Counted from the stretch's first letter, positions 189-51,782 are shown. The stretch is DNA of 64,000 bases from Dehalococcoidia bacterium (GCA_965249275.1 CBDFLQ010000005.1:384001-448000), one strand, 5' to 3'. Notes: generated by a model from the sequence alone, not told the origin. A program made the numbers and translations.

Positions 189-1106
189 CTACACATTGGT
201 AATTAAGTCGTCGTAGGTTAGTCGCTTGCCGTGCGTTCCCTTGATCAACCTCTTCATCTGGTCAAGGGTATCCATGGGCCGGTCGTTGTGCCGCCCAGCG
301 AACTCGGTGGCATAGCGGCTCAAGTGTTTGGGAGAGACATGGTGGTAAGTACCCATAATCCCCCGCTTGAGCATGGCCCAGTGGCTCTCGATGCTGTTGG
401 TCGTAACCTCACCCCTAACGTACTCCCCGGTGGCATGATCAACCGCTTCGTGCTTCAAGGGAATACCCCTGTAGGAGAGGTGTCCATCACTGTGCAAGGT
501 AGCGTCCGGTTCAACGTTGTCGAGAACGAATCCTTGGAGAATGGGTTTCTTCGTAGAGGGAAGCACCTCGGCCTTGATCTGATTAGTTGGCTTATCCAAG
601 AGCCCCGCCACGATGGCCTTACCTTTAGGCCCTCTCCCCATGCCTCTCCACTTCCCGCCAACGTAGGTCTCATCCACCTCGACAGGCCCTCCGAAGAGTC
701 CCTGCTCTGACTCCCACGCCTTCCGTATCCTGTGCGCCAAGTGCCAAGCTGATTTTTGGGTAATGTTGAGGTCCCGATGCAATTTCATCGAGGAAACGCC
801 CTTGAGGTTCGTGGTCATGAGGTAAATGGCGATACCCCACTTGGAGAGAGGAAGGTTGGAACCGTGCATGACGGTGCCAGTTTTGACGGAAAATTCCAGC
901 TGGCAGTAGGTGCAGTGTAAGGGCTTTACCTTGCGGTTGGGGCGACGGGTGATCTCCATGCCGCCACAGCGGGGGCATGATATACCGCTGGGCCAACGAG
1001 ACTCGATGAATAACTGCTCAGCCTTTTCCTCGGTGGAGAATAATTTAGTGACCTCCAGAAGGGACAAACCCTTCCGATAATGCTTACCTGGGGCGTTCCG
1101 TGCCAT
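189..1106 (-). CDS. IS1595-family (ISXO2-like) DDE transposase
   Basis: Zn ribbon CPRC...CTYC; KGVSSMKLHRDL HTH; VEVDETY, LHSDG and NSIES motifs; YHHVSPKHLSRY..EF.GRHN tail; ATG at 1106 with AGGAG RBS (the 1250 start is an over-extension). Confidence 0.95.
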   Translation of the reverse strand: MARNAPGKHYRKGLSLLEVTKLFSTEEKAEQLFIESRWPSGISCPRCGGMEITRRPNRKVKPLHCTYCQLEFSVKTGTVMHGSNLPLSKWGIAIYLMTTNLKGVSSMKLHRDLNITQKSAWHLAHRIRKAWESEQGLFGGPVEVDETYVGGKWRGMGRGPKGKAIVAGLLDKPTNQIKAEVLPSTKKPILQGFVLDNVEPDATLHSDGHLSYRGIPLKHEAVDHATGEYVRGEVTTNSIESHWAMLKRGIMGTYHHVSPKHLSRYATEFAGRHNDRPMDTLDQMKRLIKGTHGKRLTYDDLITNV

Positions 1107-1516: not shown

Positions 1517-1542
1517 TCAAATAATTTGTATTATCATATAGA

Positions 1543-1660
1543 TGAGGGGAGTAGTGGTAATCCGGTAGACTCTCGATGTTCCCAACATCGGCATTGCTTA
1601 GGTAGTGTGTGTCAGACGCTGGCACAGAGTTTTTACAGAGGAACCATCTACTCTCCTTCA
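1543..1660 (+). ncRNA. Structured ncRNA unit 3: long stem capped by a four-way junction
   Basis: Outer TGAGGGGAGTAGTGGT/ACCATCTACTCTCCTTCA; GACTCT/AGAGTT closes three abutting 7-bp hairpins CGATGTT/AACATCG, GCATTGC/GTAGTGT and GTGTCAG/CTGGCAC. Confidence 0.7.
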
Positions 1661-1673
1661 AGATTATACATGT

Positions 1674-1874: not shown

Positions 1875-1904
1875 CTGCTTGATGCCTTATTGTATATAAT
1901 TCCC

Positions 1905-22074: not shown

Positions 22075-22567
22075 GAAATGCTGCTCTGGTAAAAATCCAG
22101 ACTAGCAGAAATATTATTTCAAGCGCTGCTGCGGGAAGCGCCAATATGAACGCGGTGCCCTTGCTATCCAAGTGACGACGGTTATCATCCCACGCTGTTT
22201 GTACCCATTCGTAAATCTCCAACTTGAATGTATCTGCATCGAAATCCCAGTAAAATTTTCGAAGCAAGCCAGGACTTAATGTAGCCAAGGCATTGAAGTC
22301 CCTTGCTCGAAAACCTTGATACACCCAGAACCCCACCCACAGGAAAGCCCCTACTCCCAGATACAAAAACCAATTAGGCCAATAATGCCAAATCGTCAAT
22401 CCAGGTTCTCCTGGAACAATAGGCAAAAGGCCTACAACAATAATCGACACCGCAAGGGTGCCGATCAGTTTTGTGTCAATTGAAGAGGCCTCCCGACTTG
22501 ACGAGTCCAAAGCCTTGATCGCCAAGTTGTAAGCCGAATTTAGCGTCTTCGGTTCTACTGAACTCAT
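22061..22567 (-). CDS. Hypothetical 3-TM membrane protein
   Basis: 168 aa, GAGG RBS, two adjacent TMs plus a C-terminal TM, lower GC than neighbours. Confidence 0.7.
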   Translation of the reverse strand: MSSVEPKTLNSAYNLAIKALDSSSREASSIDTKLIGTLAVSIIVVGLLPIVPGEPGLTIWHYWPNWFLYLGVGAFLWVGFWVYQGFRARDFNALATLSPGLLRKFYWDFDADTFKLEIYEWVQTAWDDNRRHLDSKGTAFILALPAAALEIIFLLVWIFTRAAFPISS

Positions 22568-38372: not shown

Positions 38373-38499
38373 CAAATATTCCGTTCCTTCAAAAGTTCCC
38401 TCTGGCTAGATGTGGCCTATGTATAACTACTCTGTAGAGGTGCGAAACACTTTCACCCTCACCCTAGCCCTCTCCCTCGATGGGAGAGGGGACTGGCCC

Positions 38500-39800
38500 G
38501 GTACAGACCGGGCAGAAAGGTAACACATAAACCGGGGACATGGGTAACACATCGTGGGATTGTATTAGGCAATCCCAGAGGAGGAAGATGTGTTGCCTTG
38601 GAAAGACACGAGCATAGAATCGGAGCGGTTGCAGTTCATCGAGCGTCACACTGCGGGAGAGGAGACTATTGCTGAGCTGTGCCGCCGGTCCGGGATCAGC
38701 CGCAAGACGGGCTACAAGATAATCGGCCGATACGAGGCGTATGGTGAGGACGGTCTACTTGACCTAAGCCGGGCTCCTCACAGCCATCCCAACGCCACTT
38801 CCATAGAGGTGGCTAAGCGTATCATCGAGGCGAAGCGCACCCATCCCACATGGGGCCCGAAGAAGATCGTCGCCTGGTTGCATTCCATCGAGCCCTACGT
38901 GCCCTGGCCTTCCTCCAGTACTGCGGGCGCCATACTGGACCGTGTGGGTCTGGTGAGGCGGCGCAAGCGGCGGCGCAGGGCTACACGCTGGGGCGAGCCC
39001 TTCGCCCACGCCCGGCACCCCAATGACGTGTGGGCCATCGACCTGAAGGGCTGGTTCCGCACGGATGACGGAATGCGGATAGACCCCCTTACAGCCCAGG
39101 ACGCCATGTCCCGCTACTTACTGGTATGCGACCCTCTCGACCGCCCTGCCGGCCCGGAAGTCAAGCGCTCTCTGGAGAGAACCTTCCGAGAGTACGGCAT
39201 CCCTCGGGCCATACGCACCGACAATGGTCCGCCCTTCGCCAGTGTGGGTCTGGGCAGCCTCTCACCACTCTCAGCATGGTGGGTCAAGCTCGGGATCGTA
39301 CCCGAACGCATAGAGCCCGGTCACCCCGAACAGAATGGACGCATCGAGCGCCTTCACCGGACCCTCAAGGCCGAGACCGCAACACCTCCAAAGGCCAACT
39401 GGAGACGACAACGCAGAGCCCTCGAACGCTTCAGACACACCTACAACTTCGAGAGGCCACATGAGGCCCTGGGGCAGCAACCACCAAGCCGGCTGTACAC
39501 GCCCTCGATCAGACCCTATCCCACACGTATCAGCTCGCCCGAGTACAACGCCGGTGTCACCGTACGTAGTGTCCGCAGCAACGGACAGATCAAGTGGAAG
39601 GGAGATATGCTCTACGTGAGCGAGTCCCTCAAGGGCGAACCCATCGGCCTGGTCCAGATAGACGAACGAACCTGGTCCATACAGTTCGGGCCACTCATCA
39701 TCGGACTCCTTGATGACCCCACCAGAAGGGTCGACAAAACCCCAGTCAAAGTGTTACCTATGTCCTCGGTCTAACTGTTACCCATGTCCCCGGTCGTACA
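38500..39800 (+). mobile_element. IS481-family insertion sequence
   Basis: Ends GGTACAGACCGGG..GGTAACA and TGTTACCCATGTCCCCGGTCGTACA, each with two tandem copies of an ACCGGGGACATGGGTAACA-like motif; GCCC on both flanks. Confidence 0.88.
38590..39774 (+). CDS. IS481-family transposase
   Basis: HTH LCRRSGISRKTGYK, WAIDLKG, RTDNGPPF, QNGRIERLHRTLK, RPHEAL. Confidence 0.95.
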   Translation: MLPWKDTSIESERLQFIERHTAGEETIAELCRRSGISRKTGYKIIGRYEAYGEDGLLDLSRAPHSHPNATSIEVAKRIIEAKRTHPTWGPKKIVAWLHSIEPYVPWPSSSTAGAILDRVGLVRRRKRRRRATRWGEPFAHARHPNDVWAIDLKGWFRTDDGMRIDPLTAQDAMSRYLLVCDPLDRPAGPEVKRSLERTFREYGIPRAIRTDNGPPFASVGLGSLSPLSAWWVKLGIVPERIEPGHPEQNGRIERLHRTLKAETATPPKANWRRQRRALERFRHTYNFERPHEALGQQPPSRLYTPSIRPYPTRISSPEYNAGVTVRSVRSNGQIKWKGDMLYVSESLKGEPIGLVQIDERTWSIQFGPLIIGLLDDPTRRVDKTPVKVLPMSSV

Positions 39801-41761: not shown

Positions 41762-44056
41762 TCATTCTGCCAGCAGCGCCTCCAGAATGTACCGCGCCGC
41801 GGTCTTGTCCAGGGGCTCGTTGTTGTTGCCGCACTTCGGCGATTGTATACAGCTGGGGCAGCCATACTTGCACGGACACCCTTCCAAGGCGTCGAGGGTG
41901 GCCCTCCAGAGCTCCCGTATGAGCTCGAAACCCTTCTCAGTTATCCCCACCCCGCCCGGATGCCCGTCGTAGATGAATATCTGCGGTTTGCCCGTGTCCA
42001 TGTGCATGGGTGTCGAGAGCCCGCCGATGTCCGCTCGGTCACACATGGCGAACATGGGCAGCAGTCCGATAGCGGCGTGCTCCGCTGCGTGCAGCCCCCC
42101 TGGGAAGTCGACGTGGTCTCTCATTATCCGGTCTTGGGCCCATATCGGGATGTCGAACCACAGGGCCTGCGTGTGATAGGTCTGGGACGGCAGGTCCAGG
42201 ATTTCCTCGCCCAGGAACTCTTCCGTTATCCTTTTCTTTTTCTTGTACCCCCATATGGTGTTGGACACCTCCACCCAGCCCCGATACACAGCCACCCCTG
42301 CAGATCGCTTCGCCTCTTCCACCTGCACAATGCGGAGATCGGTGACGTGGTTGGTCTGCGTGTAGTAGTCAACGTCGGTTGGCCTGACGAAGACCAGTGT
42401 GGCGTCCATGTCCAGCTCCGTCACCAAGAACGATTCTCCCTGGTGGAGGTAAACGGCGCCGGGATGAGCTTGCGAAAACGCCGTGCCCTCGTCCACGGTC
42501 TCGATCACCCGGCCCGACCCCTCCAACACCACCTGGTAGTTGCGCCTGGATGCGGAGCGGATGTTCACCCCTTCCGCCGGATAGTCTATCTCCGGTGTTA
42601 AATGCAATCTCCCCTTGACCTGCTTCAACGACCCTTCCTCTTCCAGCCGACGCATATTCTCCTTCATCCCCTCCCCAAATAGCTCCACGTCCGACGGGGA
42701 CAGAGGCCATTCATAGGCGGCACACAAAAGGTGAGGTTCCAGTATGTACGGGTTCGACGGCGCCACCAGCGCGTGCTCGTGGGCCTTGTCGAAGAAGTCT
42801 GATGGGTTGCGCATGAAATATTGGTCAAGCGGATTGGCCTGCCCGATCATGACCGTAAGCGAACCTCCGCCTCGACGCCCGCTCCGTCCCGCCTGCTGCC
42901 ACGCGCTGGCTATGGTGCCCGGATATCCAGTCAGGATAGTCGCGTCCAGGTCCCCGATGTCCACTCCAAGCTCCAGGGCATTTGTGGTACAGACCCCCAG
43001 AAGCTCCCCGTCTATCAGGCCCCGCTCTATGCGCCGCCGATCCTCCGCGAGATACCCCGCCCGATAGGGGCTTATGCGCTGCCCCAGCTCCGGCAACGTC
43101 CTATCGAAGTTCTCCTTGGAGTACATGTAGATAAGCTCCGCGACACGCCTGGTCCGGGCGAAGGCCAATGTCCTGATCCCCCGGGCCACGAGGCGGGTGA
43201 ACAGGAAGGTGGCCTCGGTAGTCGTGCTGCGGCGCGCGCTGCGGGCTTCGTCGATAATCGGCGGGTTCCAGAACGTGAACGTCTTGTTGCCGCTCGGTGA
43301 CCCGTCTTCCGACACGACCTCGAAATCCCTTCCGACAAGGGCCTCGGCGTGCTCCTTTGGGTTCGCTATTGTCGCCGAGCACAGTATGAATTGCGGTGAA
43401 GACCCGTACAGCCGACACACCCTCCGCAGCCGCCGCAGTATGTTCGCCACGTGAGACCCGAACACCCCCCTGTACACGTGCGCCTCGTCGAGAACGACAT
43501 ATTTGAGCCGGCTCAGCATCCGGCTCCAGTTCTTGTGATTGGGGAGCATGCCGAAGTGGAGCATGTCCGGGTTGGTGAGCACTATCTGCGCTGACCTCCT
43601 GATCCGCCCTCGTTCCTCGGTCGGCGTGTCTCCGTCGAAGGTGCTGACCGTGATCTTGCCAAGTCCACGGTCGGCCTGCAACAGCTCATTTAGCGCCCGC
43701 CACTGGTCCTGGGCCAGGGCCTTGGTGGGGAACAGATATAGCGCGGCCGTCCCCCTATCCTCCAGGATATGATTCACGACGGCCGCGTTATAGATAAGGC
43801 TCTTGCCGCTGGCAGCGGGTGTAGCGACCATGACGTTAGCGCCCTCGGACAGAGCGCCCAGGGCTCGGGCCTGGTGGGAGAAGAGGGTTCCCAGCTTCAA
43901 CGCCGAAAGCGCTCGTTCCAAGGCGGGCTTGAACTTGGCCCTGGCCCCGCTATAGGAGCCTTCCTTATGAGGAATAGCCTCTACGTGGACTATCTGTCCA
44001 TCGTAGTCGGGGTGCCTTTTTATTGTTGATAGTACGTCAGAGGTGTCCAACTGCAA
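41762..44056 (-). CDS. SF2 DEAH-box helicase with DUF1998 (YprA/MrfA/SftH-like)
   Basis: ASGKS, FPTKALAQDQ, DEAH, SAT, QQAGRSGRR, C-terminal CPCKYGCPSC. Confidence 0.93.
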   Translation of the reverse strand: MQLDTSDVLSTIKRHPDYDGQIVHVEAIPHKEGSYSGARAKFKPALERALSALKLGTLFSHQARALGALSEGANVMVATPAASGKSLIYNAAVVNHILEDRGTAALYLFPTKALAQDQWRALNELLQADRGLGKITVSTFDGDTPTEERGRIRRSAQIVLTNPDMLHFGMLPNHKNWSRMLSRLKYVVLDEAHVYRGVFGSHVANILRRLRRVCRLYGSSPQFILCSATIANPKEHAEALVGRDFEVVSEDGSPSGNKTFTFWNPPIIDEARSARRSTTTEATFLFTRLVARGIRTLAFARTRRVAELIYMYSKENFDRTLPELGQRISPYRAGYLAEDRRRIERGLIDGELLGVCTTNALELGVDIGDLDATILTGYPGTIASAWQQAGRSGRRGGGSLTVMIGQANPLDQYFMRNPSDFFDKAHEHALVAPSNPYILEPHLLCAAYEWPLSPSDVELFGEGMKENMRRLEEEGSLKQVKGRLHLTPEIDYPAEGVNIRSASRRNYQVVLEGSGRVIETVDEGTAFSQAHPGAVYLHQGESFLVTELDMDATLVFVRPTDVDYYTQTNHVTDLRIVQVEEAKRSAGVAVYRGWVEVSNTIWGYKKKKRITEEFLGEEILDLPSQTYHTQALWFDIPIWAQDRIMRDHVDFPGGLHAAEHAAIGLLPMFAMCDRADIGGLSTPMHMDTGKPQIFIYDGHPGGVGITEKGFELIRELWRATLDALEGCPCKYGCPSCIQSPKCGNNNEPLDKTAARYILEALLAE

Positions 44057-48498: not shown

Positions 48499-51632
<3,134 letters not shown>

Positions 51633-51707: not shown

Positions 51708-51782
51708 CGCGGGGTGGAGCAGTGGCAGCTCGTCGGGCTCATAACCCGAAGGTCGTTGGTTCGAATCCAACCCCCGCTACCA
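51708..51782 (+). tRNA. Initiator tRNA-fMet (CAT)
   Basis: Cloverleaf with C1:A72 mismatch, GGG/CCC anticodon stem, loop CTCATAA, TTCGAAT, encoded CCA. Confidence 0.96.

Follow-up and report, generated by a model that had tools for sequence, protein, structure and literature searches.

A very rare four-way-junction RNA motif on mobile DNA of a Dehalococcoidia bacterium

A genuine, very rare and uncatalogued structured RNA motif is located on mobile DNA of a Dehalococcoidia bacterium (GCA_965249275.1), at positions 1543-1660 of the plus strand of a 64,000-nucleotide stretch (CBDFLQ010000005.1:384001-448000; hereafter the window, along the whole of which positions are counted). The element, referred to here as the four-way-junction RNA, measures approximately 115-118 nucleotides (nt) and is recognized by its minimum free energy (MFE) fold, its first rank among the segments of the window, a relative in a second genome (G011), and variants in two metagenomic samples. 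It is read, with moderate confidence and on sequence evidence, as a gene whose product would be a structured small RNA of about 115 nt that stands alone, acts in trans, binds protein, and serves mobile DNA.

Fold and relatives of the four-way-junction RNA

In the genome holding the window (G000, 87% complete), the plus strand of 1543-1660 folds with an RNA MFE of -52.4 kcal/mol (z -5.46), and none of 200 shuffled sequences folds equally well (0/200). The minus strand reaches -34.8 kcal/mol (z -2.49), and the junction is gone. Among 118-nt segments of the 64-kb window, taken on both strands at a step of 15 nt and with MFE corrected for G+C by linear regression, 1543-1660 ranks first of 8518. 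Because of this z-score, the weaker minus strand, and the first rank, the fold is confirmed as real and above chance.

In this fold, the junction-closing helix pairs GACUCU (1568-1573) with AGAGUU (1626-1631), and three hairpins, H1 (1574-1590, loop CCC), H2 (1591-1608, loop UUAG), and H3 (1609-1625, loop ACG), abut on top of it with zero unpaired junction bases. Each hairpin has 7 base pairs (bp) and a loop of 3-4 nt. Beneath the junction, the two ends of the molecule pair in an outer stem (1544-1558/1643-1658, with a bulged U1647), which is followed by an AA bulge (1559-1560) and a short helix (1561-1563/1640-1642). Above this helix lie a 1x3 internal loop, a further pairing of 1565-1567 with 1634-1636, and a UU bulge leading into the GACUCU/AGAGUU helix. 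Taken as a whole, the closing helix has its 5′ strand at 1565-1573 and its 3′ strand at 1626-1636, the latter including a run of five U residues (U5, 1630-1634). The AA bulge lies within a conserved block, GGUAAUCC (1556-1563), and faces a second one, GAGGAACC (1638-1645), of which the GGAACC part (1640-1645) pairs with GGUAAUCC. G-U pairs make up 7 of the 48 pairs, three of them in H2 and one in H3.

A covariance model built from the 1543-1660 sequence and its MFE structure alone (R1) was searched over 151 genomes including G000 and returned one other match, a full-length copy of 118 nt in G011 (58.4 bits, E 1e-10), which belongs to a different genus of the same family. Folded alone, this copy has a z-score of -9.29 on the plus strand versus -4.75 on the minus strand, which again loses the junction. 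Its fold comprises a long outer stem with three pairs changed on both sides, the same AA bulge (GGUAAUCC opposite GAGGAACC), and a 9-bp closing helix. The three arms abut once more without a linker, but have 6, 5, and 6 bp and loops of 5-6 nt; H1 (6 bp) carries one U-A to U-G change, and H2 has 5 bp and a 5-nt loop. At paired positions of both sequences, G-U outnumbers A-C by 13 to 2, of which G011 alone contributes 6:2, the G000 share (7:0) being true by construction. This excess, together with the two-strand fold statistics in both genomes, favors a plus-strand transcript.

In a model-based alignment of the two distinct sequences, 94.7% of the cells at the 48 pairs are paired, compared with 38-48% after a slide of one to three columns. 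Five pairs are changed on both sides in G011 (the three of the outer stem and two in the junction-closing helix), seven are changed on one side, and five are lost. As there are two sequences and the alignment is fitted to the structure, these counts are supportive rather than conclusive.

Further variants were found in public sequencing runs of two other samples and studies, one yielding the contig X4 and the other the contigs X5 and X6. X4 is approximately 93% identical to 1552-1905, and X5/X6 are approximately 93% identical to 1410-1757 plus 1879-1905; the differences were assigned to the G000 pairs by manual mapping. No RNA run was listed among the holders. Six substitution events across X4 and X5/X6 keep pairing. 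In both variants, 1569 A>G turns A-U into G-U; in X4, 1603 U>C and 1654 U>C turn G-U into G-C; and in X5/X6, 1619 C>U turns G-C into G-U. H2, the weakest-looking arm, carries in X5/X6 a compensatory change of U-A to C-G (1595 U>C with 1604 A>G). Both variants lack the bulged U1647 and leave GGUAAUCC unchanged, and within H1 the single-base insertions of both are confined to the loop. Divergence of X4 is approximately 10% over the four-way-junction RNA, versus approximately 3% over the neighboring module B (described below). As judged from these comparisons, the overall shape persists, whereas the loop sequences, the lengths of the arms, and even the absence of linker bases are subject to drift.

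The family is very rare, occurring in two genera of one order and as two metagenomic variants. A second covariance model, built from the G000 and G011 sequences (R2), matched 2 of 12 genomes of the order, with one copy each in G000 and G011 and zero in the other 10, and in G011 both models return the single copy plus its own reverse strand at 28.5 bits. R2 found nothing outside G000 in a phylum sample of 151 genomes. In the class sample, it matched 3 of 151 genomes; the third match, in G121 (E 0.37), was rejected, as it lies in GC-rich, coding-looking DNA and its fold has a z-score of -0.82. A BLAST search of 1400-1900 against 61 genomes (60 relatives and G000) left the 1543-1660 RNA unmatched, returning only tRNA T-loop matches and module B in G005, and a blastn search of 1250-1905 against phage and plasmid collections gave no match. 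An exact pattern of three conserved blocks, GGTAATCC..GTTTTTNNNGAGGAACC, was also scanned over contig collections. Among 185,579 species genomes, it occurs in one stretch (L019), identical to the G011 copy, and neither this nor a second pattern occurs in viral contigs. Four metagenome-contig stretches with the pattern were dismissed as chance, since the model does not match them, their folds are unrelated, and three of them are one sequence.

These results bear on the first-pass annotation of the window, which had described three equal 7-bp hairpins closed by GACTCT/AGAGTT without linker bases, on an interrupted stem, with two arms in need of G-U pairs and a fold specific to one strand. Both a reading of the sequence and the MFE fold reproduce the closed, abutting hairpins, the stem with its interruptions is as described above, H2 and H3 are the arms that need G-U, and the loss of the junction on the minus strand bears out the strand specificity. 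A comparison with homologs had been suggested there, and the G011 copy indeed folds alone into the same zero-linker four-way junction. The equal 7-bp arms hold in the G000 copy alone and fail in G011, and the lack of linker bases holds in both genomes and fails in X4, where the junction-side pair of H2 is broken. A long bulged stem topped by a perfect four-way junction is a feature of the family; three equal 7-bp arms are not.

The carrier transposon and its RNA modules

The four-way-junction RNA is carried by a 3.8-kb transposon at G000:C5:382105-385904 (L016 12105-15904), which occupies the window up to 1904. Its right terminal inverted repeat (1880-1904, minus strand) is perfect over 25 nt, with similarity continuing to 1872; the 25-nt sequence has two copies only in the genome, in inverted orientation (G000:C5:382105-382129 and 385880-385904), and the likeness between them extends to 33 nt. 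An 8-bp target-site duplication, TATTCTTT, lies at 1905-1912, with its twin just left of the left repeat, outside the window. The transposase gene (189-1106, minus strand; start codon uncertain, reading frame open to 1250) encodes a DDE_Tnp_IS1595 domain (Pfam, 2.3e-30) and an N-terminal zinc ribbon (Zn_ribbon_IS1595, 4e-08), and it has a promoter-like site of its own on the minus strand (1175->1147). IS1595-family elements duplicate 8 bp of their target, and the carrier combines the transposase domains, terminal inverted repeats, and target duplication of this family. The host target is a gene for an N6/N4 DNA methylase-HNH protein, the C-terminal half of which lies at 1952-2800 on the plus strand (N6_N4_Mtase profile positions 132-216 of 221, plus HNH) and the N-terminal half to the left of the transposon (L016:11547-12122, profile positions 1-94 of 221). 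Given the repeats, TATTCTTT on both sides, and the gene halves on either side, the transposon has been inserted into this gene. The contigs X4, X5, and X6 lose their likeness at 1905 and continue into differing flanks, and since all three foreign contigs diverge exactly there, the transposon end at 1905 is a mobile boundary. The terminal repeat of the transposon was found in 1 of 401 genomes of the class, namely G000.

Siguier, Gagnevin, and Chandler reportedly described IS1595-family insertion sequences with passenger genes in 2009. The element described here resembles such elements in its transposase with zinc ribbon, terminal repeats, 8-bp duplication, and passenger genes, but differs in that its cargo is largely non-coding, comprising at least four folded RNA modules besides three tRNA-like genes. 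In the literature on structured RNAs of Dehalococcoidia and on IS1595 elements with tRNA or passenger genes, neither such an RNA nor such a cargo was found described. Other open reading frames of the transposon encode 133, 68, and 181 amino acids, the last with a hydrophobic N-terminal part. A DUF2188 protein of 75 amino acids is also encoded in the transposon (L016 12758-12985, minus strand) and matches the PADLOC phage-defense candidate PDC-S16 over its full length (5e-32).

The right-hand 680 nt of the transposon form a gene-free array of RNA modules read towards the transposon end, in the order of promoter-like site, module S0, tRNA-like gene, four-way-junction RNA, module B, and hairpin C, all on the plus strand. 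At the head of the array, the promoter-like site TGGACA-18-TATCAT (1221-1250) has 10 of 12 matches. Module S0 (1257-1410) is an inverted repeat in which a 15-bp closing stem encloses three hairpins (z -4.79), and an approximately 96%-identical piece of it is present in the X4 contig. S0 begins where the promoter-like site at 1221-1250 would start transcription, and it has no Rfam match. In X5/X6, another tRNA 3′ end takes the place of S0.

The irregular tRNA-like gene (1421-1512) lies 30 nt upstream of the four-way-junction RNA and has the anticodon GCC, a long variable arm, and a D arm like that of tRNA-Sec, with a 6-bp stem and a 4-nt loop. It is missed by ARAGORN, and at 1421-1511 it matches the Rfam tRNA-Sec model at 34.6 bits, against a gathering score of 47. 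By eye, its acceptor and T stems have 7 bp plus 3-4 bp with mismatches (compared with 8/4 or 9/3 in allo-tRNA). In X5/X6, two changes in the variable arm are compensatory (1472 G>A with 1486 C>U), and 1451 A>G mends an A-C mismatch of the anticodon stem, both as mapped by hand. Such changes indicate that the tRNA-like gene is itself under structural selection. Two more irregular tRNA-like genes of 89 nt each are present in the transposon (L016 12659-12747 and 13323-13411), called as 'tRNA-Gly(GCC)' and 'tRNA-Ala(UGC)', both with long variable arms. The UGC gene has a class-II body and passes the Rfam tRNA threshold (47.2 bits), and the two GCC genes match only the tRNA-Sec model, below its threshold. 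The combination of class-II bodies with Gly and Ala anticodons is suggestive of allo-tRNA-like or mistranslating tRNAs. Inside the transposon and downstream of the UGC gene, a non-coding stretch (L016 13475-13620) also folds strongly (z -3.96).

Mukai et al. (2017; PMC5389517) described polycistrons of irregular or allo-tRNA-like genes located close to transposon genes and toxin-antitoxin systems. The present locus is alike in that three irregular tRNA-like genes, all with long variable arms, stand in an array, here inside a transposon. In contrast to the members of those polycistrons, the four-way-junction RNA is without tRNA features and occurs in G011 without any tRNA, and the section of that paper on the polycistrons does not mention companion RNAs of this kind.

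Module B (1674-1745) is a small branched fold of highly conserved sequence, with few changes in X4 and X5/X6. A relative is found in another species of the genus (G005; L004 1514-1565, minus strand), with 88% identity over 65 nt and 94% over 52 nt, and its differences include compensatory ones in one arm and the closing stem; module B has no match in Rfam. In G005, the module stands alone between convergent genes, in an unrelated gene context. Long hairpin C (1770-1870; z -4.98) varies in its presence, as the 121 nt of 1758-1878 that hold it are present in X4 and precisely absent from X5/X6; this segment is possibly a small insertion beside the transposon end. Taken together, the distribution of the modules, with B alone in G005, the four-way-junction RNA alone in G011, and C lost in X5/X6, indicates that they move independently.

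The transposon context, with the irregular tRNA-like gene directly before the RNA, went unnoticed in the first-pass annotation. It matters more than the fold itself, as a DDE transposon is found here with a largely non-coding cargo whose modules recombine independently. Such independent modules point to RNA genes as mobile accessory functions. The locus also offers a concrete place to ask what arrays of irregular or allo-tRNA genes do, with modules small enough for probing, pull-down, and structure work.

Proposed mode of action and competing explanations

In the mechanism proposed here, the RNA would arise either from a -10-type promoter of its own or, by processing of the tRNA type, from the array transcript. 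Its two ends would then pair in the long helix with the conserved AA bulge, ending in the four-way junction, and the molecule would most likely act in trans as a protein-binding scaffold or decoy serving mobile DNA. A weak -10-like box, TATCAT (1532-1537, plus strand), precedes the GGGG of the outer stem by 8 nt; in G011, an equally spaced TGtTATAAT lies before the stem, and X4 has TAACAT at this place, in a loose end of its alignment. In G011, the copy lies between a divergent aminotransferase gene, the closest relatives of which are 65-71% identical, and an unknown gene, followed by IS1/IS3-type fragments. Since the upstream gene is divergent, a plus-strand RNA would need its own promoter in G011.

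The flanking DNA and the neighboring proteins are unrelated between the two loci, and NCBIfam yielded nothing useful for the small open reading frames nearby. Downstream of the RNA are module B and the transposon end in G000, whereas a 38-codon open reading frame and then a convergent membrane-protein gene follow in G011, and these differing contexts argue against a cis regulator. A protein-binding scaffold or decoy is favored because the shape and the helical blocks are conserved while the loops are not, and because no downstream gene is shared; a base-pairing small RNA or a cis regulator is less likely. SAM-I, NiCo, and cobalamin riboswitch aptamers are built on four-way junctions, and the 1543-1660 RNA resembles aptamers of this kind in its size, closing helix, junction, and internal hairpin with U-run. 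However, its junction and loops hold no conserved nucleotides, and its two copies have unrelated surroundings downstream; the conserved position upstream of related genes that marks a riboswitch or cis-acting leader was not found across the G000 and G011 loci.

Several observations weigh against a stand-alone, protein-binding RNA. Its transcription, ends, and strand are deduced from the DNA, and promoter evidence on the plus strand is limited to the -10-like box, with no -35 box found in G000 or G011. The best sigma-70-like site in G011 is on the minus strand (TTGTCA-16-TATAAT, 11/12; L018 1621-1648). The U5 run after H3 is invariant and scored as part of a terminator in both G000 (H3 with the following GAGUUUUU) and G011 (AGGGUUUUU). 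As to the protein-binding step, no protein gene is common to the G000 and G011 loci. Three substitution events in the metagenomic variants break pairs. X4 has lost the junction-side pair of H2 through 1608 U>A and the loop-side pair of H3 through 1615 G>C together with 1619 C>U, the latter pair being absent from G011 as well; in X5/X6, 1652 U>C leaves an A-C mismatch, and an extra U is inserted in the outer stem. The comparison draws on just two distinct full sequences and two contig variants, with an alignment fitted to the structure by the model, and the shuffle control of this alignment was not significant, with the observed values reached in 21 of 500 and in 56 of 500 shuffles. A structure-blind MAFFT alignment (RNAalifold) recovers 31 pairs only, those of the outer stem, the closing helix, and H3, with H1 and H2 mis-registered; the model-based alignment and the independent folds of the two single sequences were relied on instead.

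The element might also be a relic or an inactive palindromic DNA resembling a miniature inverted-repeat transposable element (MITE), of which the outer stem would be the terminal inverted repeats and the fold a by-product. This alternative is unlikely. Imperfect inverted repeats, like the pairing ends of bacterial MITEs, can be recognized in the outer stem, and both copies are in or beside mobile DNA. Similar AT-rich boxes also flank each copy, ATTATCAT / ATTATACAT in G000 and TTATAAT / TTATAAT in G011, but the boxes are alike between the genomes and so seem to belong to the unit instead of being target duplications. The G011 copy is not enclosed by inverted repeats, and no clear target duplication sets off the element. 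In contrast to bacterial MITEs, it is present once per genome in G000 and G011 and absent from the other 10 genomes of the order. Furthermore, the three arms stay paired through one-sided and compensatory changes that a MITE would not need, and the mismatches are biased to G-U on one strand.

The neighborhood of the tRNA-like gene raises the prospect, itself rather improbable, that 1543-1660 is a cis-acting 3′ module of the tRNA-like transcript, in which H3 and U5 would act as a terminator or attenuator and the remainder as a protective trailer. Such a role would be in keeping with the start of the element 30 nt past the tRNA-like gene in G000 and X5/X6, and with the terminator-like H3 plus GAGUUUUU or AGGGUUUUU and invariant U5 noted above. 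However, no tRNA or tRNA-like gene was found upstream of the G011 copy, the gene on that side being divergent. The U-run starts 4 nt past the H3 stem, and it is itself paired in the conserved closing helix. The outer stem, whose 3′ strand lies beyond the U-run, shows covariation between its two strands, which implies selection on the full-length RNA.

It is very doubtful that the minus strand, or both strands, would be functional as a leader or through sense/antisense control of the aminotransferase gene in G011 and the transposase gene in G000. The near-consensus minus-strand site of G011 lies just outside the copy and reads through it to the aminotransferase start approximately 250 nt away, and G000 has TATAAT (1666-1671, minus strand) at the corresponding position, directed into the element from just beyond its 3′ side. 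The minus strand of G011 also still folds well. Nevertheless, in both genomes this fold is much weaker and without the junction, and the G-U to A-C count speaks for the plus strand. In G000, moreover, a minus-strand transcript would cross the tRNA-like gene and S0 in antisense, the transposase has its own promoter-like site, and the two genes reached are unrelated.

A bolder form of the preferred reading takes the right half of the transposon as a mobile RNA-only cargo operon, with the four-way-junction RNA as a decoy that resembles a Holliday junction or tRNA core and titrates a junction- or tRNA-binding protein. Its target would be, for example, a defense nuclease or recombination enzyme of the host or a rival. 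This is a speculative proposal with little probability at present; if true, it would define a new class of transposon-borne RNA effectors.

The possibility that the element works as single-stranded DNA, as a strand-specific recombination or priming site in transfer, is highly improbable. Folding of the plus strand with DNA parameters keeps the same architecture (z -2.98 in G000 and -7.34 in G011), G-T pairs are tolerated in folded single-stranded DNA, and the element is tied to mobile DNA. However, the significance of the DNA fold is modest in G000, genes for a relaxase, a rolling-circle Rep, or an integron integrase were not seen next to the G000 or G011 copy, and the phage and plasmid collections hold no match. 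IS1595 transposases are DDE enzymes that act on double-stranded ends, which further weighs against this explanation.

Regarding known families, the first-pass annotation had proposed a distinct non-coding RNA motif outside the named ones, possibly of tRNA shape or a branched nucleic-acid mimic, and had called for an Rfam search. Rfam 15 (4227 models; E<=10) was searched with 6-kb and 521-nt stretches and gave no credible match over 1543-1660; the matches there are at chance level (10-15 bits; IS605-orfB-II on the minus strand, HOTTIP_4, and Six3os1_3), and a permissive threshold returned none at the G011 locus. Across the 64-kb window, ARAGORN reports only a tRNA-Met at 51708. With the fold kept in relatives, the first part of the proposal is upheld, and the tRNA shape is not supported, as tRNA models fail to match and the loops (3-4 nt in G000 and 5-6 nt in G011) include neither a 7-nt anticodon loop nor a T-loop. 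The nucleic-acid mimic is a purely speculative idea. A degenerate tRNA-like or Y-RNA-like molecule is largely refuted by the same absence of tRNA-sized loops, by the lack of any match of 1543-1660 to the Rfam Y RNA models, and by a TROVE (PF05731, Ro/Rsr) search that responds in control genomes and finds no such gene in the 87%-complete G000, even though a four-way junction closed by paired 5′ and 3′ ends stands here in an array with irregular tRNA genes. In bacterial Y RNAs of the YrlA type, the paired 5′ and 3′ ends form a long bulged stem beneath a multi-branched domain. The four-way-junction RNA is likewise a small RNA with its ends in such a stem and a multi-branched top, but its arms are without the tRNA-like T and D loops.

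If it is expressed, the four-way-junction RNA adds to the orphan structured RNAs a very rare family with an unusually clean architecture. Elsewhere in the window, segments approximately 3 standard deviations below the GC-corrected trend lie at about 22366-22483 (minus strand), 49756-49873 (plus strand), 43696-43813 (plus strand), and 38416-38533 (minus strand).

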